The position numbers were made by a program, and so were the translations under genes. Positions 4,396 to 33,510 of a stretch of 64,000 nucleotides of DNA are shown piece by piece. Positions within the stretch are counted from its first letter, which is position 1, and the number at the start of each line of letters is the position of its first letter. This DNA is from Candidatus Pacearchaeota archaeon (GTDB lineage Archaea > Nanobdellota > Nanobdellia > Pacearchaeales > GW2011-AR1), in NCBI GenBank assembly GCA_023133415.1, contig JAGLWM010000004.1, forward strand, positions 3,574-67,573, given 5' to 3'. The notes beneath the pieces are model-generated. The model was not told the DNA's origin. It saw only the letters and a program-made list of their open reading frames with translations, and searched no databases.

Positions 4396-7300
4396 TGAGA
4401 GAAAAAATAGTTGCGAGTTTTGAATTGATTTTGATGGTTATGTCATTGTTTGCGTTTGCACATGGGGTTTATTTGAGTGATGAGGTATTTGAAAAACTTG
4501 ATGAAAAATATAAGGAAGCAAGGGATTCCAGACTTACTGAGATTGTTGAACTGAGTGAAAGAATTCAGCCTGAAAAATCGAAAATTGGACTCATTGGTGC
4601 TATTTTTAGGAGGTTGAGGGAGCCAATGATTCAGGTTGTTTCAGCGGCGGAAACTTCGTCTGGTATTGATGAACTGGGATGTTGTTTCATGGCTAAAGAT
4701 GGGTCGAAGTGTGGAACTTCGGAGCCTGGAAATTGTGTTGCGGATTCGCCTTTTGCTGAAGGAGTTTTGTGCGCTTATGCCTCATTTTGCCAAAAGGGTT
4801 GCTGTTTTGATGAGAAGTTGGGGATTTATGATAAAAATGTTTTGGAGGCGGATTGTTCGGCGAGTTGGGTGGGGGATCCTAATTGCAATATGCCCGAGGC
4901 GAAGCTTGGATGTTGTATTTTGGGAACAAGTTCGATTTTTGAGACATTGGGGCAATGTGAGATTGATACTTTAGCGAGGGCAATGGGAGATAGTCCAATT
5001 GTTGATTGGAGGAGTGATTTGGATGAAGGACAGTGTTTTTTAATGTCGGCGACACAGGATGAAGGGGCTTGCATTCTCGATGGAGGAGTTTGCACGTTTG
5101 GGAGTGGGGTTGATTGTTATGATTATGGGGGACAGTTTAGCGAAGGTTTTCTTTGCACTTCTTCTTTGTTGAATAGTAATTGTGAGATGACTGAACAAAC
5201 AACCTGTGTTGATGGTAAGGATGGTGTTTATTTTGTGGATTCTTGTGGGAATTATGCGAATATTTATGATTCGGCGAGGGTGAATGACCAGAGTTATTGG
5301 GAGAGAGTTATCGATCCGGAAAATGCCTGCGGAAATGACGATATTGAGGGAAATGCAGATTCTAAAGATTGTGGGAATTGTAATAGATTTTTTGGTGGAA
5401 TTTGTGGTTCGGCAACGGAGGATAATTTTGATGTTGATATTGGGAGTTTCTATTGTAAAGGGACGTCGTGCATGTTTGATGGAGTGAGTTATAAAAATGG
5501 AGAATCGTGGTGTGTTTATGATGGGGCGATTGGCAATGGGGATGATGTTGTAGGATCGAGGCATTGGAAATATGTGTGTTCACAAGGAGTGGTGCAAATA
5601 GAGCCTTGCGCGGATTATCGTAATCAGATTTGCATTCAGACGAATACTTTTGATGTTGAAGGGGAAGAGGTTGAGTTTCGAAATGCTGCTTGTATTGCTA
5701 ATAATTGGAGGGAGTGTATTGATTTGAATGGTGAGGAAGATGGGATAGACCAGTGTGTTGATGCTTTGAATTGTCGAGTTGAAAATGTTGATATTGCGGA
5801 CAAATTTAAGTTTGATGTGTGTCTTCCAAGGTATCCGGGGGGATTTAGTTTAATAGATGAGAGATATATGGTGACGGCGGAGAGCATTTGTGGGATGGCT
5901 GACCAGATATGTACGGTTGTGCGAGAACCGAAGACATGGGGAGGGTGTAAATATGTTGCGAATAAGGCGTGTCTGAGCGAGGGTTTTGCGCAAGAGATGA
6001 ATGATTTTTGCAGGGGACTTGGAGATTGTGGGGGGTCGGTTAATATTTTGGGGGAGTATTCTGAAAATTATAAAGTTACAAAATCTCCCATGTTGAGTCA
6101 GAGTTGGATTAATAAACTGAAAGCATTGGCTGAACCTGTGCCAGGGCAGTTTGCAGAGGTTGAGGATTATTCGGAGTATTTGGAAGCAGCTGGAGTCTGG
6201 GCGAATCCAGAAGAGGCGGCTGAGAGTGGGGATGCTAGGGGAATGGCTGACTTTCAGAATATAGGAATGGGACTTGCGGGAATTGGATATACCGCTGGGC
6301 TTTGGGCTACTGGTGGAAAACTTGCTCTTACTGGACTTATGGAAATAGCGGGGGGATCGTGGTCGGCGACTGTAGCAAGTTTCGCAGGTGTTGCGATTGG
6401 TGCGGGAATTGGTATGATTGCTGGAGCATATCTTGCTGAATATCTTGAATTGAGTCCGGGCGGAAGTATGTTGATGGCGGTAGGTGGGGCGATGGTCGGC
6501 GGGGCTGTTGTATATTTTAGTTTAACTCCAGCACTTTTAGCAAGTCCTTTCTTTTGGGTTGGTATTGCTCTTATTGTTGTATCTCTTTTTTTTGGTGGCG
6601 ATGATTGTCCTCCGATAGAAGTTATTTTTGAGTGTAAACCGTGGAAAGCTCCTTTGGGTGGGAGTGATTGTGAAAAGTGTAATGAAGATTTGTTGAAACC
6701 GTGCTCGGAGTATCGTTGCAATAGTTTGGGATCGGCATGCGAGTTGGTGAATAAGGGAACTGTCCAAGAGATGTGCGCGTCCTCAAGTGATGATGGAATT
6801 CCTCCTGTTTTAAGTCCGCAGTTTGGGACTATTTCCGCGGATGAAATTTATGGTGACATTAGTGATAGTAGATTTAGTTTGACATCCATAGATGGGGGAT
6901 GCATTGATGCTTATACCCCTTTAATGTTTGGCATTGTTACAAACGAGTTGGCATATTGTAGATTTGATATGGAGACAAAAGAGTTTGAGGAGATGGATTT
7001 CGATTTTGGGGGGAATTCTTATTTATATAATCATACGACTGTATTTAGTCTGCCAGACCCGAGTCATGGGCAGAGTCAAGGAGCGGATTGGAATGGAGAC
7101 TTGACTTTGTATATTAAGTGTGTTGATGTTCACGGGCATGAAAGTCCAGGTTTTTACACGATTGATATGTGTGTGAATCAGGGACCAGATAAAACAGCTC
7201 CGCGGATTGTTGCGACTGATCCTGTGAATAATGCGATTGTTGGATTTGATGTTTCGGAGAAGAGTGTTAGTATTTTCACGAATGAGCTTTCGACTTGTAG

Positions 7301-8621
7301 GTGGGACTTGTCTGATGTTGATTATTCTTCTATGTCTGATAATATGATTTGTGATGACATTTTTGGATCGCCTTCTTCGTCTCAGGGATATCTATGTGAA
7401 ACTGTTGTTCCTCTGGCGGGTGGAGATAGCGTTTATTATATTAAGTGTATGGATCAACCGTGGCTTGATAACATGTATGACCGGAATGTAGTGAGCATGA
7501 TTTACAAACTGCGGAAGCCGGAGAAGAAGATTGAGATTGACTGGATTGAGCCAAGTCAAGATTTTGAGAGTGTGACTGATATGACGACGATTGAGTTGCA
7601 GGTTCAGACTTCGGGTGGGGGAGGATTGCATTATTGTTCGTTTTCGTTTTCGGGATATGATAAAATGATTAAGATGTTTGAAACTGGAGCGGATAGAATA
7701 CATGTTCAACCATTAGAGCGACCTATCGGGACTAGTAAGATTTATGTTGAGTGTACTGATGAGACTGGAGATAGTGTTCAATCATGGACTGAGTTTGAGA
7801 TTATTAAAAGGGGAATTGAAATGGAAATTGAGCCGATTGAGGATTCCGTGAGTGCATTTGAAGAGGTGATTGTTGATTTATTGGTTCGAACTTCGGGTGG
7901 AGGTAACGAGCATAATTGTTCTTATTCGCTTAGTGAGGATGGTGTGGGTATTGAGTTTGAGAAGCAGGGAAATGTTGGTGTTCATGAGCAGGGGGTTACC
8001 GTGGCTGTTGGTAGTCGAACGATTTATGTCGAATGTTGGGACGAGGCAGGAAATTCGGCAAAGGATGATGTTTCGTTTGAGATTATTAGAAAAGGGATGG
8101 AGATTGAGATTGAGCCGATTGAGGATTTCGTGAGTGGATTCAAAGAGGTGGTTGTTTATTTACTGGTTCGAACTTCGGGTGGAGGTAACGAGCATAATTG
8201 TTCTTATTCGCTTAGTGAGGATGGTGTGGGTATTGAGTTTGAGAAGCAGGGAAATGTCGGTGTTCATGAGCAGGGGGTTACCGTGGCTGTTGGTAGTCGA
8301 ACGATTTATGTCGAATGTTGGGACGAGGCAGGAAATTCGGCAAAGGATGATGTTTCGTTTGAGATTGCTTATGATACTTCGGTGCCACAGGTTGCCAGAG
8401 TTTGGCAATCTGACAAAAGGCTTTATGTTGTTACAATCGGGGAAACTAATTGTGAGTATTCGACAGTAAGCTGTAAGTTTAATTGGGGTGATGGTGAGTC
8501 TGCTGGAAGTGGACAGGAGCATGTCATTAATGTTATTCGTGGTAAGACATATTATATCAAGTGTGAGGATGAATTCGGGAATGTGCCTTCGGGGTGTTCG
8601 ATAATAGCGCATACGTTATAA
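4392..8621 (+). CDS. giant cysteine-rich membrane/surface protein (N-terminal Cys-rich ectodomain, Gly-rich multi-TM segment, Cys knot, Ig-like repeats)
   Basis: 1409-aa ORF whose ATGA overlaps the upstream stop. Signal/TM at the N-terminus, dozens of Cys (CGNC, GESWCV, EPCADYRNQIC). TM block GMGLAGIGYTAGLWATGG..FFWVGIALIVVSLFFGG. C-terminal repeated beta-rich modules begin D-x-T-A-P. Confidence 0.85.
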   Translation: MMREKIVASFELILMVMSLFAFAHGVYLSDEVFEKLDEKYKEARDSRLTEIVELSERIQPEKSKIGLIGAIFRRLREPMIQVVSAAETSSGIDELGCCFMAKDGSKCGTSEPGNCVADSPFAEGVLCAYASFCQKGCCFDEKLGIYDKNVLEADCSASWVGDPNCNMPEAKLGCCILGTSSIFETLGQCEIDTLARAMGDSPIVDWRSDLDEGQCFLMSATQDEGACILDGGVCTFGSGVDCYDYGGQFSEGFLCTSSLLNSNCEMTEQTTCVDGKDGVYFVDSCGNYANIYDSARVNDQSYWERVIDPENACGNDDIEGNADSKDCGNCNRFFGGICGSATEDNFDVDIGSFYCKGTSCMFDGVSYKNGESWCVYDGAIGNGDDVVGSRHWKYVCSQGVVQIEPCADYRNQICIQTNTFDVEGEEVEFRNAACIANNWRECIDLNGEEDGIDQCVDALNCRVENVDIADKFKFDVCLPRYPGGFSLIDERYMVTAESICGMADQICTVVREPKTWGGCKYVANKACLSEGFAQEMNDFCRGLGDCGGSVNILGEYSENYKVTKSPMLSQSWINKLKALAEPVPGQFAEVEDYSEYLEAAGVWANPEEAAESGDARGMADFQNIGMGLAGIGYTAGLWATGGKLALTGLMEIAGGSWSATVASFAGVAIGAGIGMIAGAYLAEYLELSPGGSMLMAVGGAMVGGAVVYFSLTPALLASPFFWVGIALIVVSLFFGGDDCPPIEVIFECKPWKAPLGGSDCEKCNEDLLKPCSEYRCNSLGSACELVNKGTVQEMCASSSDDGIPPVLSPQFGTISADEIYGDISDSRFSLTSIDGGCIDAYTPLMFGIVTNELAYCRFDMETKEFEEMDFDFGGNSYLYNHTTVFSLPDPSHGQSQGADWNGDLTLYIKCVDVHGHESPGFYTIDMCVNQGPDKTAPRIVATDPVNNAIVGFDVSEKSVSIFTNELSTCRWDLSDVDYSSMSDNMICDDIFGSPSSSQGYLCETVVPLAGGDSVYYIKCMDQPWLDNMYDRNVVSMIYKLRKPEKKIEIDWIEPSQDFESVTDMTTIELQVQTSGGGGLHYCSFSFSGYDKMIKMFETGADRIHVQPLERPIGTSKIYVECTDETGDSVQSWTEFEIIKRGIEMEIEPIEDSVSAFEEVIVDLLVRTSGGGNEHNCSYSLSEDGVGIEFEKQGNVGVHEQGVTVAVGSRTIYVECWDEAGNSAKDDVSFEIIRKGMEIEIEPIEDFVSGFKEVVVYLLVRTSGGGNEHNCSYSLSEDGVGIEFEKQGNVGVHEQGVTVAVGSRTIYVECWDEAGNSAKDDVSFEIAYDTSVPQVARVWQSDKRLYVVTIGETNCEYSTVSCKFNWGDGESAGSGQEHVINVIRGKTYYIKCEDEFGNVPSGCSIIAHTL
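7797..8360 (+). repeat. in-frame tandem duplication, 2 x 282 bp (94 aa module) inside the giant protein
   Basis: EII(K/R)..IEPIED..LLVRTSGGGNEHNCSYSLSEDGVGIEFEKQGNVGVHEQGVTVAVGSRTIYVECWDEAGNSAKDDVSF occurs twice. The 3' roughly 195 nt of each copy differ at one position by eye. An older diverged copy lies just upstream. Confidence 0.9.
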
Positions 8622-14137: not shown

Positions 14138-14157
14138 AAGGGAATGTTGTATTGTTT

Positions 14158-16242
14158 ATGAAGATTGGCATTAGAGGTATTGCATTGTTGCAAGTTTGGT
14201 TGTTGGTTTTTGGAGTTGTTGGATTTGTATTTATGATGGGGAGTGTGAGTGGGGTTAAGCATGGTCCATATATTGGGACTGTTGATATTACTCCTTATGA
14301 CATAATTGATTATTCCTCTGACCCTAAACCCTCTTCTCTTAATACCCCTGTTCCAGGGGAGACTGTTGTAAAGGAGACTGTTATAGAGGAGACTGTTGTA
14401 GAGGGGGCTGTTTCTGGTTCTGATTCTTATCTTTCTAAATTATTCGGATTACAAAAAGGTGGTGGACCGAGTGCTCTTGCTACTGGTTTGCAGTGGGCGG
14501 TAGTTGCTTATTTTGCTGGGACGATGATTGGAGATCTTGTCGGGTTGAATGAGGATAACAGTAAGGCTTTGGGTGCGGCGATGGCGGCTGGTGTTGGGAC
14601 TTATGTTTTTTTAGATACTTATACGAGTAGTGCTTTGCTTGGGGAAGGTGGTCAGCTTGCGTTTTTGGGAGCTAATCCTCCTTTGGTTGGCTTGGGTGTT
14701 GGAGTTGTTGTTTTTGCTTTGATGTATAAGGATGTTGATACGGAGGTTGTGACATTTAATTGTATGCCGTGGCAGGCGCCGATTGGTGGGGATGATTGTG
14801 AGATTTGTAATGATGAGGAGTTGCCTTGTAGTGAGTATAGATGTAGATCTTTAGGGCAGAATTGTGAGATTGTGAATGTGGGAACTACCGACGAGAAATG
14901 TGTGAATGTGAATCCTGGGGATGTTAATCCTCCGGTGATTGCGCCTAAGTATGATGCTTTGACTGCTGGATATGAATATCGGAATGTGAAGCTTTCGCCA
15001 CCGGGGCCTGGTTTTGAAATTGTGAATGTTGCATCCGCAGATGGTTGCTTGAAGGCTTTTACTCCGTTGGAATTTGGTTTGACTTTGAATGAGCCGGGAC
15101 AGTGTAAGATTGATTTTAATCATACGGAAAAGTTTGACGATATGGTTGCGTTTGTTGGGGGGAGTAATTTGTTTTCTTATAATCATAGTGAGGCATTTAG
15201 TTTGCCTGGGGCGAAGGATTTGAGTGATAATGGTTTTGTTTTGGAGAATGGGAAGGATTTGACTTTCTTTGTGAGGTGTCGAGATAAGAATGGGAATGAG
15301 AATTCGGCTGAGTATGCTATTAATTTTTGTATTGACCCTAGTCCTGATAATACGGCTCCAAAGATTGAGGCGACTTCGATTGTGAATGGTGGGTGTGTTG
15401 CGGAGGAGCAAGATACCGCGAATGTTGTGTTTTATACTAACGAGCCGGCGAATTGTAGATGGGATTTTCAGGATCAGGATTATGATTTGATGGCTAATGG
15501 CATGGATTGTGAGAATCAGTTTTGGCAGGCTAATGCGGCGCAGTTGTTTGGGTGTTCTGCGGAGTTGACTGGGATTGCGAGAGATGGCACGACTTTTTAT
15601 GTGAGATGTAAGGATCAGCCTGGGAAAGATGAGGCGGATAGGAATGAAAATAGGGAAAGTTTTGAGTTTAATTTGAGAGGAAGTGTGGGCTTGGTTTTGA
15701 GGAACTTGAAGCCGAATGAGACTATTTTTAGTGGGGTGAGTCCTAGTCCGATTGAGCTTTATGCCGAGACATTGTTTGGTTGTAATAATGGGAGAGCTAT
15801 TTGTGCGTGGTCTGATGATGGAACGAATTATATTCAGTTTTTTGATACGGATAATGAGGATGGGATTCATACTCAGAGATTAGATTTGGTGGGTGGTGAG
15901 CATAAATATTTTGTGAGATGTGTTGACGCTGGAGGAAATTTGGTTGAGGATGTTGCAAGTTTTAGGTTGGATATTGATGTGGATGCTCCGGTGATTGCGA
16001 GAGTTTATGAGGAAGGGCAGATGTTGAAGATTGTGACTGTTCGGAATAGTGAGTGTTCTTATAGTCATGATAATTGTGACTTTATGTTTGGTGAGGGGAT
16101 AGAGATGCCTTATGGGAATACGACTGTTCATGTTGCGGAGTGGGATGAGAAGAAGACTTATTATATCAAATGTCGAGATGAGTTTAGGAATGAGGACGCT
16201 GATTGTTCTATAGTGGTGCGGCCTACTAGTGATTTTATTTGA
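14158..16242 (+). CDS. membrane/surface protein, paralog of the C-terminal half of 4392..8621
   Basis: Gly-rich TM block, then F(N/E)C(M/K)PW(Q/K)AP(I/L)GG(D/S)DCE.CN..(L)PCSEYRC.SLG..CE(I/L)VN, and Ig-like modules with the ..CRWD.. motif. The signal peptide is almost identical to that of 11371..13182. Confidence 0.8.
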   Translation: MKIGIRGIALLQVWLLVFGVVGFVFMMGSVSGVKHGPYIGTVDITPYDIIDYSSDPKPSSLNTPVPGETVVKETVIEETVVEGAVSGSDSYLSKLFGLQKGGGPSALATGLQWAVVAYFAGTMIGDLVGLNEDNSKALGAAMAAGVGTYVFLDTYTSSALLGEGGQLAFLGANPPLVGLGVGVVVFALMYKDVDTEVVTFNCMPWQAPIGGDDCEICNDEELPCSEYRCRSLGQNCEIVNVGTTDEKCVNVNPGDVNPPVIAPKYDALTAGYEYRNVKLSPPGPGFEIVNVASADGCLKAFTPLEFGLTLNEPGQCKIDFNHTEKFDDMVAFVGGSNLFSYNHSEAFSLPGAKDLSDNGFVLENGKDLTFFVRCRDKNGNENSAEYAINFCIDPSPDNTAPKIEATSIVNGGCVAEEQDTANVVFYTNEPANCRWDFQDQDYDLMANGMDCENQFWQANAAQLFGCSAELTGIARDGTTFYVRCKDQPGKDEADRNENRESFEFNLRGSVGLVLRNLKPNETIFSGVSPSPIELYAETLFGCNNGRAICAWSDDGTNYIQFFDTDNEDGIHTQRLDLVGGEHKYFVRCVDAGGNLVEDVASFRLDIDVDAPVIARVYEEGQMLKIVTVRNSECSYSHDNCDFMFGEGIEMPYGNTTVHVAEWDEKKTYYIKCRDEFRNEDADCSIVVRPTSDFI

Positions 16243-16246
16243 AAAT

Positions 16247-16346
16247 CACTGGGGGTTCATAAAAGCTTTGCTTTTATGGAGGGGTTCAGCTTTGCTGGAG
16301 GGGTTCAATCACTTCGTGATTGGGGAGTTCATGCTTCGCATGGAGA
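16247..16346 (+). repeat. array of four GGTTCA-[variable stem]-CTT(T/C)G-[stem']-TGGAG hairpin units
   Basis: ttcataaaagctttgcttttatgga, ttcagctttgctgga, ttcaatcacttcgtgattgg, ttcatgcttcgcatgga. Confidence 0.8.
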
Positions 16347-16388
16347 TTTGGCGGAGGGTTTTTAACTTTGTGAGTTTTTTGTTTTCTT

Positions 16389-16751
16389 ATGTGGAATATT
16401 GAGGGGTTAGATGTTTATAGAAAAATTTGTGATTTAATAAAGAAAGTTTATGGGTTAATTGGGATGCTGCCTAGCGAGGAGAAGTTTGCACTTGGTGATC
16501 AGATGCGGCGAGCTGTTACGAGTGTTAAATTGAATATTATTGAGGGGTCGGGGAAGAGGACGAGCAAAGAATTTATTTCTTATTTGAATAATGCAATGGG
16601 GAGTTTGCGTGAGGTTCGTGGGTGCGTTGAAGTTGGGGTTGATTTGGGATATTTTGTAAAGAGTGGGAGAAAAGAGACTAATGAGATTAAACGGATTGAA
16701 AGATTGTTGGCTGGATACATCAAATATGTTGAAAAGAAAAATGTTAAGTGA
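16389..16751 (+). CDS. four-helix-bundle protein (23S rRNA intervening-sequence protein / Avd-like family)
   Basis: DVYRKICDLIKKVYGLIGMLPSEEKFALGDQMRRAVTSVKLNIIEGSGKRTSKEFISYLNNAMGSLREV is the family hallmark pattern. Confidence 0.8.
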   Translation: MWNIEGLDVYRKICDLIKKVYGLIGMLPSEEKFALGDQMRRAVTSVKLNIIEGSGKRTSKEFISYLNNAMGSLREVRGCVEVGVDLGYFVKSGRKETNEIKRIERLLAGYIKYVEKKNVK

Positions 16752-16868
16752 GTTACAAAAGCTTTGCTTTTGTGGAGGGGTTCAATCACTTCGTGATTGG
16801 AGAGGTTCAGCTTTGCTGGAGGGGTTCAATCACTTCGTGATTGGGAAGGTTCATGCTTCGCATGGAGA
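16752..16868 (+). repeat. second array (five units) of the same hairpin family, flanking the four-helix-bundle gene
   Basis: Units as at 16247-16346 in a different order. ORF 16663..16881 is an artefact of it. Confidence 0.8.
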
Positions 16869-16886
16869 CTTGGTGGATTAAGTAGT

Positions 16887-16896
16887 TTTATAAAAT
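16887..16896 (+). promoter_or_regulatory. TATA box about 25 nt upstream of ATG 16916
   Basis: ttttataaaa. Confidence 0.5.
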
Positions 16897-16915
16897 GTGT
16901 GTGCTTTTGTTTTAG

Positions 16916-17413
16916 ATGGAGATGATAAATAAGAGGGGACAGCAGACTATGGGGATGCCGTTTGGGATGATTTTTGCGATTTTTTTGATTGTGGTTTTTG
17001 TTGTTATTGCTTTTGTTGCGGTTGGGTATTTTTTGGATATTGGGAGGAGTGCGAGTGTTGGGTTGTTTTATGATGAGTTGCAGACGGCGGTTGATGATGC
17101 AGTGAGGGGACAATCAAGTGAGAGAAGCTTTGATGTGGATTTGCCTTCGGGAATTGAGAAGGTTTGTTTTGCGAATTTGAGTGGGATGATTACGAATCCC
17201 GGGGCTGATTATGATGCGATTCGGAATTATGATGTTTATGATGCGAATGTTTTTTTGGTGCCGCCGGAGTATGCTCAGAATATGCAGTGGAAAAGGATTG
17301 ACCGGATTAATGTAACGCGGATTACACAGGTTGAGAATCCTTATTGTGTTGAGGTCGAGGATGGGTTGAAGATTAAGAAGGGGTTTTATGATCGATTGGT
17401 TTTTATTGAATAA
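16916..17413 (+). CDS. pilin-like protein with class III signal peptide (NKRGQQ)
   Basis: MEMINKRGQQTMGMPFGMIFAIFLIVVFVVIAFVAVGYF. Confidence 0.7.
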   Translation: MEMINKRGQQTMGMPFGMIFAIFLIVVFVVIAFVAVGYFLDIGRSASVGLFYDELQTAVDDAVRGQSSERSFDVDLPSGIEKVCFANLSGMITNPGADYDAIRNYDVYDANVFLVPPEYAQNMQWKRIDRINVTRITQVENPYCVEVEDGLKIKKGFYDRLVFIE

Positions 17414-17530: not shown

Positions 17531-17579
17531 GGAAGTAGAAAGATTTAAAATAACTATTATTGTGGTTATTATAACCTTT

Positions 17580-18098
17580 ATGGTGATTATTATGGAATTT
17601 AAGATTTTTATTGAGAAGAGCCCATTGGCTCGAAAAGTTTTTGGGAAACGGGAGATTGTGATTATTCGTAAACAGATTGCTGGGATTAATTTGACGCAGT
17701 CGGAGAAAAATAGGCTTTCCAGGGATATTCGACCGAAGTTAAGATTTATTCTGGAGGCTTCAAAATTTAGAGATGAGTTTGATTTGAAGAAGGGAAGTGA
17801 GAATAGAAAAATTGTTGAGAACGTTTTGGAGGTAATTAGGAAAGATGAGGATTTTGGGAAAATTTTGGAGATTTGGTTGTTTGGCTCGATGGTAGAGAAC
17901 AAGATGACGATTCGTTCTGATGTCGATGTTTGTGTTTTATTTGATAGGATTGGTCAAGTTGGTGCTGATAAGTTTAGATTGAGGATTTTGGGATGGCTTA
18001 GTGATAAGGCTGATGTTCAAGTGTTTAATATTTTGCCTAATAAGATTAAAAAGTCAATATTAAAAAGTCATAGGGTATTGTATAAGAGAAATGGGTGA
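17580..18098 (+). CDS. mntA: nucleotidyltransferase-domain protein (MNT-type antitoxin candidate) with N-terminal extension
   Basis: LFGSMVENKMTIRSDVDVCVLF (GS..SDxD) motif. Start uncertain (17562, 17580 or 17592). Confidence 0.7.
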   Translation: MVIIMEFKIFIEKSPLARKVFGKREIVIIRKQIAGINLTQSEKNRLSRDIRPKLRFILEASKFRDEFDLKKGSENRKIVENVLEVIRKDEDFGKILEIWLFGSMVENKMTIRSDVDVCVLFDRIGQVGADKFRLRILGWLSDKADVQVFNILPNKIKKSILKSHRVLYKRNG

Positions 18099-18492
18099 TA
18101 GAAAAGGTGATAAGATTGTTGAGATAGAAGAGTATTCGGATAAGTTGACTGAATTTTTTCCTTCTGATTTTAAAAATTATACTTCTGACGAGAAAACCAA
18201 AGCGGCATGTGAGAGATATTTTGAGAAGATTGTCGAGAGTGTTGTTGATTTGGCATTCTTTACTATTAAAGAAGAAAATTTTAGGGCGCCAGAATTTGAT
18301 AGGGAGGCATTTGAAATTTTAGCTGGGAAAAATCTAATTTCTGAGAAACTTTCTTTGAATCTTGGCAATGCGAAATCTATGCGAAATTGGTTGGCACACA
18401 GATATGGGAAAGTTGACGATAAAAAGGTGTTTGAGGCTATTCGTGATAAGTTGTTTTATGATGTTAGAGATTTTTTGGAGGCAATAAAATGA
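18091..18492 (+). CDS. hepT: HEPN/DUF86-domain protein (HepT-type toxin candidate)
   Basis: RNWLAHRYG (R-x4-H-x-Y) motif. Overlaps the MNT gene by 8 nt. Confidence 0.75.
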   Translation: MGDRKGDKIVEIEEYSDKLTEFFPSDFKNYTSDEKTKAACERYFEKIVESVVDLAFFTIKEENFRAPEFDREAFEILAGKNLISEKLSLNLGNAKSMRNWLAHRYGKVDDKKVFEAIRDKLFYDVRDFLEAIK

Positions 18493-19424
18493 AAAGGGGG
18501 CAGTTTAGTTTTGTCTGGTTGTTTGCGATTTTGGCGGGTGGGGCGATTTTGGCTTTGGCGATTTGGGGTGCGATGCAAGCTGGAGGCACATTGAGATTTC
18601 AAAGTGAGACCGAGGCTGCCAAGAGTATTTCGATTTTGACTGATCCTTTGCAGACTGGTTTTGCCGAAGGGTCTTTTGGGAAGATTTCTTTTCGGCAGAA
18701 AGCTCGATTAAATAATATTTGTTTGGATTCTGGATTTGGGAAGAATGATATTTCGGTCGCAATACGAAGCAGTGTTGGGAAAGAATGGAATTTGGCTGGA
18801 GGTGCGACATCTGTTCACAATAAATATATCTTTTCTGAAGAGGTGAATGAGGGTTTTGATTTTTTTGTTTTTTCTAAGTCTTTTAATTTTCCGTATGAGG
18901 TTAGTGATTTGATTTTTTTGAGTTCTGGAAATTATTGTTTTTTGAATTCGCCCGAAAGTGTTGAGGAGGATGTTTTGGGATTGGGAATTGATAATGTTGT
19001 TCTTGATAATTGCAGTATTGGGGATATTCGAGTTTGTTTTGGAGGCGGTGTTGATTGTGATATTTTTGTTTATGGGTCGTGTTCGGGAAATTGTGATTCA
19101 ATTTATGATGAGGGGACTGTTGCGAAGGAGGGTGGGGATTCTGATTATGTTGGGAATTTGATGTATGCTGCGATTTTTTCTGATAAGGAAGTTTATGATT
19201 GTAATGTTAGACGGTTGTTGTACCGAGCGAAAAGTATTGCAGATATTTTTGTGGAGAAGAGTGATTTGATGAATGCTCGGAATTGTAATACTAATTTGAA
19301 GGGTGATTTGATTGTTTGGAGTGCGATGCTGGAGGGTGCTGGTTCTGAGGATTTGGTTTTGTTGAAGGGGTTTGCTAAGAATTTAGGAAGGAAGGAAGAC
19401 AGGGAGTTGTGTAGGGTATGGTAA
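18489..19424 (+). CDS. pilin-like protein with class III signal peptide (MKRGQF)
   Basis: MKRGQFSFVWLFAILAGGAILALAIWG. ATGA overlap with hepT. Confidence 0.7.
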   Translation: MKRGQFSFVWLFAILAGGAILALAIWGAMQAGGTLRFQSETEAAKSISILTDPLQTGFAEGSFGKISFRQKARLNNICLDSGFGKNDISVAIRSSVGKEWNLAGGATSVHNKYIFSEEVNEGFDFFVFSKSFNFPYEVSDLIFLSSGNYCFLNSPESVEEDVLGLGIDNVVLDNCSIGDIRVCFGGGVDCDIFVYGSCSGNCDSIYDEGTVAKEGGDSDYVGNLMYAAIFSDKEVYDCNVRRLLYRAKSIADIFVEKSDLMNARNCNTNLKGDLIVWSAMLEGAGSEDLVLLKGFAKNLGRKEDRELCRVW

Positions 19425-19588
19425 AAAAGCTTTGCTTTTTTACCGGTGGTCGGGGGTCGGTGGTCGGTAGTCGGGATGACTTGGGCAACTTGCGGGGGTC
19501 GGGAGTTGGGGGTCGTGAGTCGTGGGTCGTGAGTCGTGGGTTGGGGGTCGTGAGTCGTGGGTTGGGGGTCGGGGGGAAGGGGGGGCAG
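19425..19588 (+). repeat. G-rich GGTCGG-type modular repeat (hairpin aaaaagctttgcttttt, 26-nt core, gacttgggcaacttg module, gtcgtgagtcgtgg subrepeats, G runs)
   Basis: Core ggtcgggggtcggtggtcggtagtcgg at 19448-19473 is identical to 57612-57637. Open in frame with the downstream CDS (track ORF 19418..20074). Confidence 0.85.
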
Positions 19589-20074
19589 ATGAAGATTATG
19601 CAGATGTCGTTTATGATTATTGCTGTGTTTTTCTTTTTTATTTTGGTTGGTTTGTTTTTTTTGGGAATTGCATTTAAAGATATTCGGAGTGGGGCTGAGC
19701 AGCTGCAAAGGGAGCAGGCTATTTCTTCTTTGGAGGTTATTGCTGGGATGAATGAGCTTGCTTATTATTCGGGTGAGTCGATGAGTGTTGATGAGGATAA
19801 GTTGCGGATTATGTCGGGGAGCTTGAGCGTGGATTATGGAGAATTTTGGCCGATTGCTTCGTTGGAATTTCATAAGGTTTATCCGGCTTTTGATGAAGTT
19901 GTGAAATGTCCTGCTGTGGGGTGTAATTATTACGAGATTTTTGATTCTGGGCAGAGGGATGTTGAGAAGTTTTCTTCTTATGTTTCTATTTGTAAAAGGG
20001 TTAGGGAGTTTGATAGTGTTTATAATCGGTGTGAGATTGGGAAAATTGTTGTGGGCATGAGGATTTTAGAATGA
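19589..20074 (+). CDS. membrane-anchored pilin-like protein; possibly translated from 19418 with a repeat-encoded leader ending KGGQ
   Basis: MKIMQMSFMIIAVFFFFILVGLFFLGIAF. The alternative ATG 19418 overlaps the upstream stop by 7 nt. Confidence 0.6.
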   Translation: MKIMQMSFMIIAVFFFFILVGLFFLGIAFKDIRSGAEQLQREQAISSLEVIAGMNELAYYSGESMSVDEDKLRIMSGSLSVDYGEFWPIASLEFHKVYPAFDEVVKCPAVGCNYYEIFDSGQRDVEKFSSYVSICKRVREFDSVYNRCEIGKIVVGMRILE

Positions 20075-20604
20075 AATTGAGAAATGAAATAAATAATATG
20101 AAAAATAAAATAAATAGAAAGGGGCAGCAGGAGATTGTGGGGTTTGTTTTGATTGTGGTCTTGGTGATGGTTGGGCTGATGGTTTTTTTGGTGATTTCGG
20201 TTCGGGATGTTACGGAGACGGAAGATAGTCTTGAGGTTTTGAATATGATTGGTGTTTTGATGAGGACGACTAGTGAGTGCGCGATTGTTTATGAGCCGGA
20301 TTATGATGATTTTGAGGATTTGTTTAAGAGTTGTCATAAAAATGATCGGTGTAGTAATTTGGATAGGTCTGCTTGTGATTATTTGAACGAGAGTTTTGGT
20401 GATGTTGTTGATGCTCTGATGAGAAGTGAGGCGGATGTTGAGGCTTGGGATGTTGAGTTTTTTGTTAAGGATGGAGGTGAGATGCTTGGTTTTTGGGATT
20501 CGGAATCTGGTAATTGCACGGGACGAGTTGAGGGGGCGCAGAGGAGTATAGTTTCTGGAGGAGAGAGTTTGGTTGTTAGAATGAGGGTCTGTCGTGGGAG
20601 TTAG
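20071..20604 (+). CDS. pilin-like protein with class III signal peptide (NRKGQQ)
   Basis: ..KINRKGQQEIVGFVLIVVLVMVGLMVFLVI. ATGA overlap with the upstream gene. Confidence 0.7.
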   Translation: MKLRNEINNMKNKINRKGQQEIVGFVLIVVLVMVGLMVFLVISVRDVTETEDSLEVLNMIGVLMRTTSECAIVYEPDYDDFEDLFKSCHKNDRCSNLDRSACDYLNESFGDVVDALMRSEADVEAWDVEFFVKDGGEMLGFWDSESGNCTGRVEGAQRSIVSGGESLVVRMRVCRGS

Positions 20605-20658
20605 GGGTCGGTAGTTGGGGGTGGGTAGTCGGTAGTCGGTGACTTGTTCGGCTTTGCT
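20604..20658 (+). repeat. G-rich GGTCGG repeat + gacttgttcggctttgct module
   Basis: aggggtcggtagttgggggtgggtagtcggtagtcggtgacttgttcggctttgct. Confidence 0.75.
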
Positions 20659-21013
20659 ATATTTCTATTATGATTTGTAGTTTATCAATTATTAGGACTG
20701 GTTTTAGGGATTCTCGTTTGCCTGTTTTTTCTGCGTGGAATTCTATGAATCCGAATCTTTCCAGTACTTTGATATCTTCTCTAACTGACTTAAAATCTCT
20801 TCCTAGGATTTTGGCTAAGGCGTATATTGACTTGGGGTTTTTGTGTTTTAGGGCGTAGAGGATTCTGGATTTTTCGTTTGTCAGGAGATTACGAAGGAGT
20901 TTGACATCTGAGAAGTCGTGAGGTTTTTTTTCTCCGATTAGTTTTGAGACGAAGTTTTCTTTGCTTACATTCACATCGACATATCGTGTTTTGGTTCGTT
21001 TTTTATTTGCCAT
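20657..21013 (-). CDS. winged-helix transcriptional regulator
   Basis: LLTNEKSRILYALKHKNPKSIYALAKILGRDFKSVREDIKVLERFGFIEF is an ArsR/MarR-like wHTH. Confidence 0.6.
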   Translation of the reverse strand: MANKKRTKTRYVDVNVSKENFVSKLIGEKKPHDFSDVKLLRNLLTNEKSRILYALKHKNPKSIYALAKILGRDFKSVREDIKVLERFGFIEFHAEKTGKRESLKPVLIIDKLQIIIEI

Positions 21014-21160
21014 GGGGGAGGGAGCGAAGCTTATGCTTCGCGTTTTTGGTTTTTGGTTGTTGGTTTTTGGTGGGGGGGAGCGAAGCTTTGCTTCGCGTTT
21101 TTGGTGGTAATTGTTGCGCGCTGTGGCGCGCTGTGGGCAGGGGAGGTCTTGGGATTTGGA
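21014..21160 (+). repeat. hairpin + T/GGT-tract modular repeat (two gcgaagc-ttt-gcttcgc units, ttgcgcgctgtggcgcgc module)
   Basis: Same modules as at 24788, 26514, 27226 and 30801. Plus-strand orientation although it lies upstream of a minus-strand gene. Confidence 0.75.
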
Positions 21161-24787: not shown

Positions 24788-24790
24788 GGA

Positions 24791-24830
24791 GTGAAGCTTT
24801 GCTTCGCGTTTTTGGTTTTTGGTTTTTGGT
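24791..24830 (+). terminator. hairpin + T-tract terminator-like module
   Basis: gtgaagc-ttt-gcttcgc followed by gtttttggtttttggtttttgg, directly after the GT2 stop. Confidence 0.45.
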
Positions 24831-25075
24831 TAAGGCATCAAAGATGCCCAACTTGTTCGGCTTTGTTATTTTGTGACTTGTAAAAATATTATGTTTATGG
24901 AAATTGTTTTAAAATTTGATTTTGGGAATTGGGTAATTTTTAGCCATGGATTTCACGGACGAGCACGGATTTTTTGTGGGACATGCGACTTTTATTAATA
25001 AATCTATTAGACTATTTTCGCTTAGGCATTTTAATTTGAATCCGTCAGTTATGGTCTTTTTGTTTTAGGGTAAGG

Positions 25076-25098: not shown

Positions 25099-25189
25099 TT
25101 TTAGGATGAGAAGGATAGAATCGGGGGTCGGTGCTCGGTAGTCGGAGGTCGGGAGACTTGGGCAACTAATTTTTAGGATGAGAAGGATA
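25099..25189 (+). mobile_element. 53-bp G-rich GGTCGG element flanked by a 19-bp direct duplication that contains the start codon
   Basis: ttttaggatgagaaggata at 25099-25117 and 25171-25189. Between them: gaatcgggggtcggtgctcggtagtcggaggtcgggagacttgggcaactaat. Confidence 0.7.
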
Positions 25190-25807
25190 AAGAGTGTTGT
25201 GGATAAGGAAAGCGTTCAGCGGCGGAATAGTATGATTATGGGAGTTGTGATGGTTGGTATTTTGGTTTTTGCGAGTTTGGGATATTCTTTGATGAGTGCG
25301 GATGGGGAGGATGAGAATGTTGTTAGGGAGTTGGGTTTTGATTTTGTTCGGGATGGTGGACTTTGGAAGGTTGAGATTGCTGGGGGAATTTTTGGTTTTC
25401 AGTATTTGCCTTCGGAGGTTGATGATATTGATGTTAATTTGACGAAAGAGTTGGGTGAATATTCTGGGGAAGTTTTGTATTTTGTGAATCCGAATGAGGG
25501 CGTGGGTGAGGTTTTGAACAATCTTGGACGCTATATTTTGAGGTACCAGGAATCTTGCTTGCAGCAAGATTCTGGGGAGTCGAGGGTCGGGGGTCGGGGG
25601 TCGGATGACTTGGGCAACTTGACTAGTAAGGGGAGTGAATATGTTTGTGAGGGGGATTTGCCGGTGAAAGATTGTAGTAGTAATTTGATTATTTTTGAAA
25701 GTGGGAATGAGACGAGGGTTTATGGAGATGGGGGTTGTGTTCATATTGTTGGGGATAGTATTCGGGGCGTCGATGCTTTTTTATATGAGGTTTTGAATGT
25801 AAAGTGA
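25178..25807 (+). CDS. membrane-anchored hypothetical protein carrying an in-frame G-rich repeat insertion
   Basis: N-terminal TM MIMGVVMVGILVFASLGY. Nucleotides 25575-25625 (ESRVGGRGSDDLGNLT) are a copy of the GGTCGG/gacttgggcaacttg element. Confidence 0.6.
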   Translation: MRRIKSVVDKESVQRRNSMIMGVVMVGILVFASLGYSLMSADGEDENVVRELGFDFVRDGGLWKVEIAGGIFGFQYLPSEVDDIDVNLTKELGEYSGEVLYFVNPNEGVGEVLNNLGRYILRYQESCLQQDSGESRVGGRGSDDLGNLTSKGSEYVCEGDLPVKDCSSNLIIFESGNETRVYGDGGCVHIVGDSIRGVDAFLYEVLNVK

Positions 25808-25811: not shown

Positions 25812-26513
25812 ATGGCTAAGAGAAAAAATAAAATAGAAAAGAATAAAATAGTGAAGGAAAAAGAGGGGGAGGTTGAGAAAGAAGTTGGGGTTGGGAAGGT
25901 GACGATTGAGAGAGAGAATCGACAGATGGGTTGGTTTATTTTTACTGTCATTGCTGTCTTTGCTTTGGTTTTGATTCCGTATTTTTGGGTTGAGAGCTCT
26001 AAGAGTTTTGAATTTGGTAATATTGATTGGGTGATCGAGGATTATGAGAATCTGAGAATTTTTCATGGAAGGTTCTTGTCTTTTACTAATTCGAACTTGT
26101 ATTACAATGTTTTTTTAAGAGGGGATCCGAGGAAGAATGATATTTATACGGAGGGGAATTTTGATAGTTTTAAGTATGGTGGGATTATCTCGGTAAGTCC
26201 TGAGGTTGATTCTTGTCGTGGAGAATTATCGAGAGTTATGCTTGATTTGGGAGCTTTCTTGAAACGAGGGGCTGGGGTTGGTGTTTTGGAAAGTGGTTCG
26301 ACTGACGAGGGTGTTGCTAATGAGAGTGGTCGGAGATTTGTGACTTGTGGGAATGTTTTTGATAGGACTGTTGTTATTGTTGAGATTGGAGAGGCTAGAG
26401 TTTTGCAGGACGATGATAATTCTTTTTGTTATACTGTTTATGCTGAAGATTGTAATGATGTTCGTGGTGTTGAGAGGTTTATGGTGAAGGCTGTTGAGGA
26501 TTTCAGGGATTAG
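25812..26513 (+). CDS. membrane-anchored hypothetical protein
   Basis: Lys/Glu-rich N-terminus, then TM GWFIFTVIAVFALVLIPYFWV. Confidence 0.6.
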   Translation: MAKRKNKIEKNKIVKEKEGEVEKEVGVGKVTIERENRQMGWFIFTVIAVFALVLIPYFWVESSKSFEFGNIDWVIEDYENLRIFHGRFLSFTNSNLYYNVFLRGDPRKNDIYTEGNFDSFKYGGIISVSPEVDSCRGELSRVMLDLGAFLKRGAGVGVLESGSTDEGVANESGRRFVTCGNVFDRTVVIVEIGEARVLQDDDNSFCYTVYAEDCNDVRGVERFMVKAVEDFRD

Positions 26514-27375: not shown

Positions 27376-27416
27376 TTTTATTATTATTTGATTATTGGGA
27401 CTGAATGATTTTAGAA

Positions 27417-30800: not shown

Positions 30801-30804
30801 GGGA

Positions 30805-33509: not shown

Positions 33510-33510
33510 T

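Follow-up and report, generated by a model that had tools for sequence, protein, structure and literature searches.

REP-like elements are classically bacterial. The pneumococcal BOX element (boxA-boxB(n)-boxC) is modular, intergenic, probably transcribed and without a transposase of its own. Proteins of the 23S-IVS/Avd-like type are very common in bacteria and archaea, and to our knowledge they have no known function outside DGRs. REP and BIME sequences are short, foot-tagged hairpins that occur in clusters in intergenic DNA, mostly downstream of coding regions (PMC3733652, PMC6006769). In DGRs, Avd works by binding the reverse transcriptase and a structured RNA (PMC10053308).

The 64-kb stretch of archaeal DNA analyzed here (the window) contains two arrays of small hairpins, with the gene for a 23S rRNA-IVS protein (IVP) in between. 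The upstream array (16254-16345) has four hairpins and the downstream array (16752-16867) has five. The features of the locus are as follows.

14152-16242, + strand: upstream host gene, a 696-aa Cys-rich secreted protein of a pilus-like operon (ORF list)
16228-16250, + strand: hairpin hp0, AGTGATTTT-ATTTG-AAAATCACT, across the TGA stop codon of the preceding gene
16254-16281, + strand: upstream unit 1, stem ATAAAAGC/GCTTTTAT, loop TTT
16283-16300, + strand: upstream unit 2, stem AGC/GCT, loop TTT
16302-16325, + strand: upstream unit 3, stem AATCAC/GTGATT, loop TTC
16326-16345, + strand: upstream unit 4, stem ATGC/GCAT, loop TTC; a short terminal unit, typical of the family
16346-16354, + strand: upstream array tail ATTTGGCGG, family consensus (G/A)(C/T)TTGG(C/T)GG
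16359-16365, + strand: TATA-like box TTTTTAA, starting 30 nt before the IVP ATG
16389-16751, + strand: IVP gene, a 120-aa four-helix-bundle protein (PF05635/TIGR02436)
16744-16749, + strand: left copy of the TTAAGT duplication (a single GTTAAGTAGTTTTATAAAA in array-less relatives)
16752-16777, + strand: downstream unit 1 (A′), stem ACAAAAGC/GCTTTTGT
16779-16802, + strand: downstream unit 2, stem AATCAC/GTGATT
16804-16821, + strand: downstream unit 3, stem AGC/GCT
16823-16846, + strand: downstream unit 4, stem AATCAC/GTGATT
16848-16867, + strand: downstream unit 5, stem ATGC/GCAT
16868-16877, + strand: downstream array tail ACTTGGTGGA
16878-16883, + strand: right copy of the TTAAGT duplication
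16886-16895, + strand: exit TATA-like box TTTTATAAAA, putative promoter of the next host gene and part of the inserted cassette
16916-17413, + strand: downstream host gene, a 165-aa pilin-like protein (ORF list, synteny)

A first-pass annotation of this DNA had described nine units in two arrays and listed their stems, and this description was confirmed by the sequence, by chance tests and by a covariance model. The pattern GGTTCA..TGGRG has nine matches against 1.7 expected, a number reached in none of 100 shuffles; six of the nine matches are array units, with upstream unit 4 (U4) and downstream units 1 and 4 (D1, D4) unmatched because their flanks diverge. Two clusters of at least four adjacent foot-tagged hairpins were observed, compared with 0.1 expected from 100 Markov resamples. 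When the covariance model was built from the units of other loci, the nine window units were among its ten best matches in the window. For the segment 16226-16356, the folding z-score is −7.6 when the + strand is folded as DNA and −9.6 for the − strand, and a thermodynamic comparison shows the two strands folding equally well, each giving the same five hairpins. The fifth upstream hairpin, hp0, lacks the constant flanks; its 5′ arm consists of the last codons of the 696-aa host gene, and the 3′ arm repeats that gene end in inverted orientation. Rfam has no match in 16150-16950 even at E≤10, and at the gathering threshold the whole window gives tRNAs only and no rRNA.

The two window arrays are direct repeats of each other, with 94% identity over 80 nt. 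Because the downstream array is an approximately 94% copy of the upstream array, the window offers only four independent stems plus one compensatory pair, a T-A to C-G change that distinguishes downstream unit 1 (A′) from upstream unit 1 (A). Thus, the earlier argument that covariation excludes simple duplication does not hold within the window, where the arrays duplicate each other. It does hold across relatives. From 43 DPANN loci we parsed 204 units in 49 arrays and found 100 distinct stems (inner sequences), although the unit parser demands pairing, so that covariation counts on parsed units are partly circular; array-level chance tests and a slid-partner control were added for this reason. 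Stem positions in the parsed units are Watson-Crick paired in 97% of cases, a near-perfection that is no proof of selection at the RNA level because palindrome correction at the DNA level would give the same pattern. The mispairs, 6 G.T and 2 A.C in 472 positions, are too few for wobble asymmetry to serve as a test of the folding strand. Among 19 units of equal length, both sides are changed in seven of nine pairs, pairing reaches 94% (72% in shuffles), and the covariation score is 0.64, compared with 0.18 in shuffles, none of 500 attaining the observed value. These comparisons support the view that the hairpin units constitute a structure-conserving family, one that extends beyond local duplication.

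In relatives, a unit reads G-Y-T-C-(A)-stem-TTY loop-stem′-(T)-G-G-R-R, and an array is composed of three to five such hairpins placed head to tail, with a constant foot, a freely varying perfect stem, a T-T-Y triloop and a short terminal hairpin, before it closes with CTTGG ahead of the TATA box of the gene. The constant flanks had been proposed to pair with each other. The foot is indeed present, with T-C...G-G invariant in all 19 aligned units and G-Y-T-C before nearly all of the 204, but its outermost Y...R is unpaired in 8 of the 19. Most of the 21 IVP-adjacent arrays tabulated have four canonical units and the rest have three to five; the loop of the terminal unit is TTC in 15 of them. 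Across arrays, the 3′ unit and the tail are conserved (the tail follows the last unit in nearly all arrays of the family) while the number of 5′ units varies, and units are shuffled among loci and genomes. One locus (L024) has a run of identical units, six ACTTCGT, and close relatives (L018/L137 versus L019/L021) differ in the order and number of units, not in point changes. The feet and the CTTGG tail are nonetheless conserved across MAGs labelled Pace-, Woese- and Nanoarchaeota.

Further copies of the arrays, which the first reading had made a test of its proposal, are absent from the 64-kb window and from 9 kb more of the contig (73 kb in total), where the only arrays are the two at the IVP gene; they are found in relatives. 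A genome-wide pattern scan returned 105 matches, among them 18 real arrays, every one in DPANN MAGs. One Nanoarchaeota MAG (JAHIEP01) carries arrays on nine contigs and other MAGs carry them on two or three. A regular expression for the CTTGG tail proved too loose, matching mostly coding sequence, such that only its long forms are meaningful, and a scan of viral contigs for arrays gave one match, by chance, in a high-GC phage gene. The G-rich strand carries 49 of 49 arrays, most of which start 0-35 nt past a same-strand stop codon. At least four arrays have no preceding same-strand gene; two at one locus (L064) are antisense to all adjacent genes, and three (L067a, L083, L134) lie between divergent genes. 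In 15 of the 18 arrays found by the scan there is no IVP in the locus and the genes downstream are unrelated. Within one MAG, IVP-adjacent and solo arrays differ in the flavor of their constant foot.

The association of the arrays with a gene of the four-helix-bundle family is both real and general. The window IVP matches PF05635 with E=1.1e-25 (90.4 bits, cut-off 33.8) and TIGR02436 with E=5.9e-27 (94 bits, cut-off 24). For comparison, the NCBIfam model for Avd gives E=1.8e-6, below its cut-off and far poorer than the IVP models; the window protein is a distant relative of Avd. Its PDB relatives, 2gsc (E=5.5e-13) and 2rld, have five chains in each entry. A same-strand array lies upstream in 23 of 23 subfamily IVP loci for which upstream sequence is available, in at least eight genomic contexts, and these arrays end 5-20 nt ahead of the TATA box. 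Arrays are kept at orthologous sites across an IVP divergence of 60-70% identity, with the unit number held at four. Upstream of a second IVP paralogue (L006, L082) lies an element of another kind, with a single hairpin or no hairpin, and distant bacterial IVP homologues (L032, L033) are flanked by 45-55-nt inverted repeats. The tie between arrays and IVP may offer a first handle on what this enigmatic family acts on, and the archaeal arrays and bacterial inverted repeats share a theme: in both, structured nucleic acid surrounds an IVP gene. We considered whether solo arrays are decayed IVP cassettes and rejected this idea: blastn of IVP genes against 21 array-bearing loci revealed a single case, L082, of an otherwise solo array with a remnant next to it; there, the array and promoters are kept and IVP has decayed to 10 codons. 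Neither of two further candidates qualified as a remnant: the TGGAATGG motif behind the L057 arrays is too weak, and the L098 promoter that resembles the IVP promoter matches a general strong promoter consensus.

Two relatives (L144, L145) have empty sites, without the hp0 arm, array, IVP gene and exit promoter. Comparison with such relatives shows the array, IVP gene and putative exit promoter to be an insertion of ∼650 nt into an operon whose genes are tightly coupled in relatives. The 696-aa host protein has 506 DPANN homologues, and its C-terminus, ...VRPT(E/S)(N/D)F(L/I)*, is present in the empty-site relatives as well; there, the exit box is missing and the next ATG follows 6-7 nt after the stop codon. 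The order within the cassette is hp0 3′ arm, four hairpins, CTTGGCGG, TATA box, IVP gene and exit TATA box. In L002, L003, L005, L006 and L082, changes in the 3′ arm of hp0 go along with changes in the coding arm, and the exit box is conserved as AGTTTTATAAAA past the IVP stop codon in L003, L005, L006 and L082. In the IVP loci that were inspected by eye, a T/A-rich box precedes the ATG by ∼24-32 nt; archaeal promoter geometry suggests a separate promoter for the IVP gene, giving a leaderless mRNA. Taken together, filled and empty sites illustrate what might be called a polite insertion into an operon, with a structured stop for the gene in front and putative promoters for both the cassette and the gene behind.

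The downstream window array is flanked by two copies of TTAAGT. Likewise, a solo array in L002 sits between two copies of ATGAGA, where L144 has only one. In these two cases the duplications measure 6-7 bp and resemble target duplications; in others they measure ∼25, 55-75 and 100 nt, L006 and L067 being among the loci with such longer ones. No terminal inverted repeats are seen at the ends of the two best-defined insertions. The best explanation of the downstream window array is that it is a later local copy of the upstream array, probably inserted with a 6-bp duplication.

Of the described systems, REP/BIME elements and REPtrons are similar in several respects. Both they and the arrays have short hairpins with a conserved, partly unpaired foot tag, in clustered intergenic units that lie mostly downstream of coding regions; as in a REPtron, a small single-copy gene is itself flanked by the repeats. 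REPs reach many copies in some genomes, as the arrays seem to do in relatives but not in the 73 kb covered here. Also like REPs, the arrays are probably both mobile DNA and a transcribed structure. In contrast to REPs, whose stems are conserved within a family, array stems are hypervariable (100 in 204 units), the tag is GYTC...GGRR rather than GTAG or CGTC, there is a defined terminal unit with a CTTGG tail, and the hosts are DPANN archaea. Array units all run head to tail on one strand, whereas REPINs are inverted pairs, and the flanked gene encodes a four-helix-bundle IVP instead of an HUH Y1 transposase (RAYT). The search for an HUH/Y1 enzyme proposed earlier was unsuccessful in the window: Pfam scans of its ∼50 ORFs detected neither Y1_Tnp nor any other transposase, and no reverse transcriptase or integrase. 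The interpretation in the first-pass annotation, of a structure-selected motif, is partly supported.

BOX elements resemble the arrays in having a variable number of internal hairpin modules between distinct 5′ and 3′ modules, but BOX modules are conserved in sequence, whereas the arrays conserve only feet, loop and tail. In the 23S rRNA IVS of Leptospira and Coxiella, a PF05635/TIGR02436 protein is likewise the sole gene of a small insertion that is bounded by structured repeats and leaves the transcribed unit intact around it. The repeats that bound the cassette are direct rows of small hairpins, however, and not the inverted halves of one long stem, and the cassette lies outside rRNA, in an archaeal host, with its own apparent entry and exit promoters. 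An IVS element proper was rejected, because Rfam finds no rRNA in the window (tRNAs only) and the flanks are direct repeats. The array-flanked gene is a relative of Avd, the DGR protein, but a DGR was also rejected, because the window encodes no reverse-transcriptase domain and self-BLAST gives nothing like a TR/VR repeat around 14-18 kb.

Several other identities were tried and set aside. IS200/IS605 is disfavored by the failure to find TnpA in the window, by the direct hairpin rows and by two insertions with 6-bp duplications. Integron attC sites are disfavored by the absence of an integrase from the window and by an element of four to five perfect mini-hairpins upstream of the gene. CRISPR was rejected because the constant part of the window units spans only ∼11-12 nt (TGGAGGGGTTCA), the "spacers" are 7-19-nt palindromes, and the window has no cas domains. 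A MITE should have terminal inverted repeats, which the two best-defined insertions lack, and a target-site duplication of fixed length, whereas the duplications here are of unequal length. A resemblance of GGTTCA(A) to the tRNA T-loop was discounted because most relatives have GCTCA; bulge-helix-bulge motifs, K-turns and the cUUCGg tetraloop do not apply to these units, which are simple stems, free of bulges, with loops of 3 nt. In the literature that could be searched, we found no description of the hairpin-array repeats of DPANN archaea, which to that extent are a previously undescribed family.

We tentatively favor the view, while holding it at less than even confidence, that each of the two arrays, nine hairpins in total, is a copy of a REP/BIME-like repeat, dispersed and strand-specific, here called a "foot-tagged hairpin array", which bounds cassettes or transcription units and has IVP as its likely partner. 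Arrays would arise and spread at the DNA level, through insertion that leaves target duplications either short or long, together with unit slippage and palindrome correction, and would then be retained for an effect exerted when the G-rich strand is single-stranded. Whereas the anatomy, distribution, insertion polymorphism and IVP association of the arrays are observed, we infer that they are transcribed at the end of the upstream gene, where the row of stem-loops would provide a structured 3′ end for that mRNA, and that they insulate the leaderless promoter of the cassette itself. A structured mRNA 3′ end and an insulated promoter could, as proposed here, make the insertion harmless to its neighbors. 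IVP, as a pentameric relative of the nucleic-acid-binding Avd, would be the probable trans-acting partner that recognizes the constant feet, although its binding to the hairpins is conjecture. Arguing against an RNA or terminator-type role, the arrays are without the T-runs of archaeal terminators, and G.U pairs are rare although the strand is strongly C-poor. Further points against the favored view are the arrays with no same-strand gene before them, the equal folding of the two strands, and the foot flavors that differ between IVP-adjacent and solo arrays of one MAG.

It is also possible, if unlikely, that the arrays are a purely DNA-level mobile element whose hairpins form when the G-rich strand, the template for the lagging strand, is present as single-stranded DNA, any effect on RNA being incidental. 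Such arrays would be non-autonomous, like REP, MITE and SINE copies, and their hairpins would be recognized by a hairpin-specific enzyme from another locus, HUH/Y1-like or else a reverse transcriptase acting with the Avd-like IVP. The orientation of 49 of 49 arrays follows the GC-skew strand, even against opposite-strand genes (L064), and pairing that is 97% Watson-Crick with few wobbles and 3-nt loops closed by C-G is typical of DNA hairpins. Filled and empty sites, duplications of 6 bp and of 25-100 nt without terminal inverted repeats, a conserved 3′ unit and tail beside a variable number of 5′ units, and the shuffling of units among loci and genomes all fit the same account, as does the role of Avd as a known reverse-transcriptase cofactor (PMC10053308). 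Conversely, the ∼50 window ORFs encode no HUH enzyme, reverse transcriptase or integrase, and the duplications could be repair scars at fragile hairpins. Persistence at orthologous sites at 60-70% IVP identity, with four units held, looks like retention for function. We know of no catalytic activity for IVP.

An improbable third account makes the array a cis-acting platform for IVP, in which four units plus hp0, five hairpins in all, bind an IVP pentamer either as DNA or as read-through RNA, for autoregulation or for assembly of a ribonucleoprotein; solo arrays would be additional binding sites. The five chains each of 2gsc and 2rld are suggestive here, as are the upstream array of all 23 IVP loci, 5-20 nt from the TATA box, the four canonical units of most of the 21 arrays despite wholly different stems, and the structured repeats (45-55-nt, inverted) around the bacterial IVP genes L032 and L033. 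Yet IVP is missing from the vicinity of most arrays that the scan recovered, the element in front of the second paralogue (L006, L082) is of another type and has at most one hairpin, and the unit count could be mere inheritance from a common ancestral cassette.

A bolder proposal, which we regard as decidedly speculative, is that IVP is the dedicated hairpin-foot binder of a new archaeal mobile element. By analogy with the partnership of Avd and reverse transcriptase, the arrays might be non-autonomous SINE/REP-like copies spread through a single-stranded intermediate by IVP together with a host polymerase or reverse transcriptase. This mobile-element reading of IVP would explain the conserved 3′ unit and tail, the variable number of 5′ units and the very unequal duplication lengths. 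If it were true, the 23S-IVS family would be a general partner of structured insertion elements, marked by long inverted repeats in the bacterial case and by hairpin arrays in DPANN archaea.

We give little credence to the arrays as a non-functional mutational by-product, in which intrastrand template switching (quasipalindrome correction) and replication slippage act on T/G-rich, skewed intergenic DNA, such that short palindromes with a slippage-prone constant linker arise and stay perfect without any function. Perfect arms with almost no intermediates, runs of identical units (the six ACTTCGT of L024), relatives that differ by unit order or number (L018/L137 versus L019/L021), an hp0 that is an inverted copy of the host flank and the many other G/T-rich intergenic repeats of the window would all be expected of such a process. 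It does not readily account for asymmetric feet and a CTTGG tail conserved across Pace-, Woese- and Nanoarchaeota-labelled MAGs, for the strict association with one gene family, for retention at orthologous loci over deep divergence, or for defined element ends and target duplications.

Ordinary intrinsic terminators of the upstream genes are very improbable: most arrays do start right past a stop codon and end before the next promoter, but no oligo-T tract follows the hairpins (no T-run after any window unit), certain arrays occupy gaps between divergent genes or run antisense to neighboring genes, and operon ends of the same genome have a distinct GCGAAGC-TTT-GCTTCGC hairpin with (GTTTTTG)n.

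These latter hairpin-plus-(GTTTTTG)n elements are separate features at operon ends in the window, which is also full of other G/T-rich intergenic repeats. In DPANN MAGs, the arrays can mislead gene callers, as the spurious ORFs called in L001 and L006 illustrate, and in principle also CRISPR and repeat finders.

The contig (ENA ERZ23498665 scaffold_51, 119.9 kb) belongs to a metagenome bin of Candidatus Pacearchaeota, a DPANN archaeon. The ORF at window positions 16389-16751 specifies a member of the 23S-rRNA-IVS family (termed IVP), 120 aa long and a four-helix bundle, which matches the profiles PF05635 (E=1e-25) and TIGR02436 (E=6e-27) and scores below the cut-off of the model for Avd, a distant relative. 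Its relatives in the PDB are 2gsc and 2rld, with five chains per deposited entry. The first-pass annotation described rows of hairpins with constant flanks ("feet") on both sides of this gene, and four such units upstream and five downstream are indeed present.

Hairpins and associated elements beside the IVP gene (window positions)
16228-16250: hairpin hp0, without constant flanks, across the TGA of the preceding 696-aa gene
16254-16281, 16283-16300, 16302-16325, 16326-16345: upstream array, four units, with tail ATTTGGCGG
After the upstream tail: TATA-like box TTTTTAA, starting 30 nt ahead of the IVP ATG
16752-16777, 16779-16802, 16804-16821, 16823-16846, 16848-16867: downstream array, five units, with tail ACTTGGTGGA
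After the downstream tail: TATA-like box TTTTATAAAA, starting 30 nt ahead of the next gene's ATG

The hairpin arrays exceed chance in pattern, row and folding tests. The flank pattern matches nine times in the window versus 1.7 expected, with six of the nine being array units, and two rows of at least four adjacent foot-tagged hairpins are observed versus 0.1 expected from Markov resamples. In folding predictions, five hairpins form in the upstream region, with z-scores of -7.6 (+ strand) and -9.6 (- strand) as DNA, and of -3.4 (+ strand) and -7.2 (- strand) as RNA. The two arrays are mutual direct repeats, 94% identical across 80 nt, which leaves the window with no more than four independent stems plus a single compensatory change, T-A to C-G. 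Read from the window alone, the structure-conserving covariation originally claimed is therefore a weak argument, but it finds support among relatives.

Exact look-up and a metagenome scan with protein alignment provided the homologue loci; close homologues of the IVP protein number about 28. A same-strand array lies directly upstream of the IVP gene in 23 of 23 loci with enough upstream sequence, in at least eight genomic contexts, and most of the 21 tabulated arrays have four canonical units. The unit consensus is G-Y-T-C, usually A, a 2-11 bp stem, a loop, the complementary arm, usually T, and G-G-R-R. Of 100 distinct units, 31 have a TTT loop and 13 a TTC loop. The last unit is short, and in 15 of 21 arrays its loop is TTC. 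In IVP-adjacent arrays, the last unit is followed by (G/A)(C/T)TTGG(C/T)GG. At IVP loci inspected by eye, a TATA-like box lies 5-20 nt past the array tail and ~24-32 nt ahead of the ATG, an archaeal promoter geometry suggesting that the IVP gene may have its own promoter and a leaderless mRNA.

Across 43 DPANN loci, a parser recovered 204 units in 49 arrays, with 100 distinct inner sequences. Watson-Crick pairs make up 97% of 472 stem positions, a count that, like the covariation counts, is partly circular because the parser selects for pairing; independent support comes from array-level tests and a slid-partner control. Among 19 equal-length units from 15 loci, 94% of cells are paired, compared with 72% when shuffled and 31-44% with slid partners. 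Both sides have changed in seven of nine pairs, and none of 500 shuffles attained the covariation score of 0.64 (0.18 in shuffles). Within the foot, the T.G and C-G pairs are invariant and the outermost Y/R is unpaired in 8 of the 19 units, which gives the feet the appearance of a sequence tag and not of a helix alone.

A scan of 185,579 species-representative genomes for two adjacent units returned 105 matches. About 87 are scattered single bacterial matches, approximately the number estimated for chance, and 18 are real arrays, all in MAGs labelled Nanoarchaeota, Woesearchaeota, Pacearchaeota or "archaeon"; in JAHIEP01, a Nanoarchaeota MAG, nine contigs carry arrays. The further copies by which the first-pass annotation proposed to judge its motif thus occur in related genomes, but none was found in the 73 kb comprising the window and 9 kb more of the contig, either by the parser or by a covariance model run with its filters off. 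Only three of the 18 array loci include an IVP gene. The remaining 15 sit between unrelated genes, including those for aldolase, PfkB kinase, ribonucleotide reductase, NAC, phosphoglycerate mutase and tRNA.

All 49 arrays are carried on the locally G-rich strand. Ahead of most, a same-strand ORF stops within 0-35 nt, with frequent overlap between its stop codon and the first hairpin. At one DPANN locus (L064), two arrays lie on the G-rich strand while all real neighbours (S15, tRNA, Bud32) are on the other strand, and at three more (L067, L083, L134) an array sits between divergent genes. Orientation therefore tracks the compositional strand perfectly, and upstream-gene transcription only mostly. 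In the window, + strand GC skew is extreme, about +0.5 across most of its length: about +0.4 to +0.6 at 1-27000 and 44000-64000, where genes are on the + strand, and about 0 at 28000-44000, where genes are on the - strand. At L064, the + strand is G-rich (+0.2 to +0.4) even over - strand genes, so part of the skew is independent of coding direction. This locus also has a tandem duplication (1057-1590) of a ~260-nt segment that comprises an array and, antisense to it, the Bud32 kinase gene's 3' end. Local duplications seem to have arrays at their edges.

DPANN homologues of the 696-aa gene number 506, and two empty sites (L144, L145) reveal the extent of the insertion. There, 6-7 nt separate the stop codon of this gene from the start ATG of a 163-aa pilin-like gene, and the junction contains no hp0 3' arm, array, IVP or TTTTATAAAA box. 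The C-terminal PTENFL* is identical at empty and filled sites; thus, the hp0 5' arm is native coding sequence and the 3' arm is an added inverted copy, which has co-varied with the coding arm across filled loci. The inserted module of ~650 nt comprises the hp0 arm, four units, CTTGGCGG, a TATA box, IVP and the next gene's TATA box. At a syntenic locus in archaeon SI039_bin30 (L082, - strand, about 7540-7700), the four-unit array and both TATA boxes are kept despite decay of the IVP ORF to ten codons (MWNVEGRGVK*).

Signs of mobility extend to single arrays. The downstream array is flanked by TTAAGT copies (16744-16749 and 16878-16883), and relatives without it have a single GTTAAGTAGTTTTATAAAA. 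At L002, a solo array sits precisely where the stop of one gene and the start of the next overlap (ATGA) and is flanked by two ATGAGA(A) copies, whereas the L144 site has one copy and no array. Other insertions duplicate the neighbouring gene start over about 25 nt (L006) or about 55-75 nt (L067), and in L006 direct repeats of ~100 nt enclose a second IVP paralogue, the repeat holding a hairpin, a CTTGGC tail, a promoter and the initial 26 nt of the ORF. The two best-defined array insertions show no terminal inverted repeats. Close relatives (L018/L137 versus L019/L021) differ by unit order and number, not by point changes, and the stems AATCAC, ATGC, AGC and AC reappear across different loci and MAGs.

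The ~50 window ORFs encode ordinary chromosomal functions (primase, PCNA, FtsZ, SepF, Spt5, ribosomal proteins), an MNT/HepT pair and a GIY-YIG nuclease. The hairpin-recognising transposase envisaged in the first-pass annotation is not among them, nor is any other transposase, reverse transcriptase or integrase, and no TR/VR-like repeat lies near the IVP gene. The MNT (nucleotidyltransferase)/HepT toxin-antitoxin pair (17562-18492) is inserted in the host pilus-like operon. Pairs of this type occupy other positions of the operon in L003 and L145, so that small selfish modules seem to accumulate in this operon.

Among known systems, bacterial REP/BIME elements with their REPtron come closest: short hairpins with a tagged foot are scattered through intergenic regions, for the most part downstream of genes, and a gene present in one copy is flanked by its own repeats (PMC3733652, PMC6006769). 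However, the conserved stems, inverted pairing and HUH Y1 transposase of REP all fail for the DPANN arrays, which we therefore do not class as REP. Second closest is the IVP-encoding IVS of bacterial 23S rRNA. Two distant bacterial IVP genes are enclosed by 45-55-nt inverted repeats (L032, about 1300-1420 and 1730-1790; L033, about 1280-1340 and 1770-1815), and are IVS-like cassettes that, judged by flanking sequence, apparently lie outside rRNA. An IVP gene enclosed in structured repeats is thus a recurring theme, though the structure is not the same. Full-text literature searches found no description of archaeal arrays of such hairpins or of an IVP-hairpin link; a CRISPR-discovery paper includes "23S rRNA IVP" among figure-legend abbreviations (new CRISPR adaptation module associations), its text giving no detail. 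The arrays are best described as a form of the dispersed palindromic-repeat theme that is new and specific to DPANN, and that in this window bounds an inserted IVP cassette. Their family, anatomy, distribution, insertion and IVP association are secure. The original observation is confirmed, and its interpretation is supported in part.

The strand that folds might be RNA or DNA, with arguments on each side. RNA would be favoured by the placement of arrays after stop codons and ahead of promoters, by the foot T.G pair that forms on this strand only, and by long retention at orthologous sites. DNA would be favoured by the near absence of wobble pairs (6 G.T versus 2 A.C) though the strand is C-poor, by 3-nt loops closed by C-G, by an orientation tied to GC skew even where genes run the other way, by insertion scars, and by the equal foldability of both strands. 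We tentatively propose, with slightly more doubt than belief, a joint reading in which the arrays would act as a structured 3' end of transcripts or an insulator, spread at the DNA level, and have IVP as partner. Canonical terminators are rejected for the arrays, which have no T-run; separate hairpin-plus-(GTTTTTG)n elements stand at gene-cluster ends in the window.

Other repeats and ORFs (window positions unless a locus is named)
21013-21110, 24788-24831, 26512-26567, 27228-27330, 30800-30850: GCGAAGC-TTT-GCTTCGC hairpin plus (GTTTTTG)n
19445-19580, 20598-20673, 24851-24880, 25120-25170, 25579-25621, 27356-27385, 30878-30890, 57599-57651: G-rich short tandem repeats
31819-32062: tandem 111-nt repeats, between - strand genes
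34747-34838, 35538-35629, 37038-37125, 54781-54830: ~90-nt intergenic repeat, between - strand genes
39002-39251, 42515-42791, 43775-44014: 210-250-nt repeat, three copies, 83-99.5% identical, round a 982-aa gene and overlapping neighbouring ORF ends
7793-8366: 292-nt tandem duplication, 94.5% identical, within a 1409-aa ORF
57254-57706, - strand: small GIY-YIG nuclease gene, adjoining the G-rich repeat 57599-57651 with its ATTTGTTCGGC tail
16229-16402, 16663-16881; L001 10338-10493; L006 3377-3580, 5053-5175: spurious small ORFs over arrays in gene callers or ORF lists

The (GTTTTTG)n family, GGGGGAGC-GAAGC-TTT-GCTTC-GCG, sits at convergent junctions and just behind gene ends, in many cases with GTGTTGCGCTCTTAGTTCGCGCG-ATTTGTTCGGCTTTGCTAT coming next, and looks like this genome's hairpin-plus-T-run terminator. 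The G-rich tandem repeats are (GGTCGGTAGTCGG)n or GGGGTCGGGGGTCGG, ending in ACTTGGGCAACT or A(C/T)TTGTTCGGCTTTGCTAT, and their CTTGG-type end resembles the hairpin-array tail. A second IVP paralogue directly follows such an element in L006 (5053-5175) and L082 (around 5180-5300, - strand). The 111-nt and ~90-nt repeats hold hairpins such as CCAATGC-GAA-GCATTGG (gene sense), which have a TTC loop on the G-rich + strand, as do arrays. The GIY-YIG gene is the only nuclease-like candidate in the window.

A further hairpin, GTAAAAAAGC-TTT-GCTTTTTTAC (19421-19443), overlaps the stop codon of a 311-aa gene; hairpins with different stems occupy the same place in L003 and L006. The called 218-aa ORF at 19418-20074 probably has its true start only at MKIMQM, around 19590. 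The spurious ORFs over arrays arise because the G/T-rich strand has few stop codons, and N-terminal over-extension of this kind may also explain the length of some IVP entries in databases (P0003, P0008, P0009; 149-166 aa).
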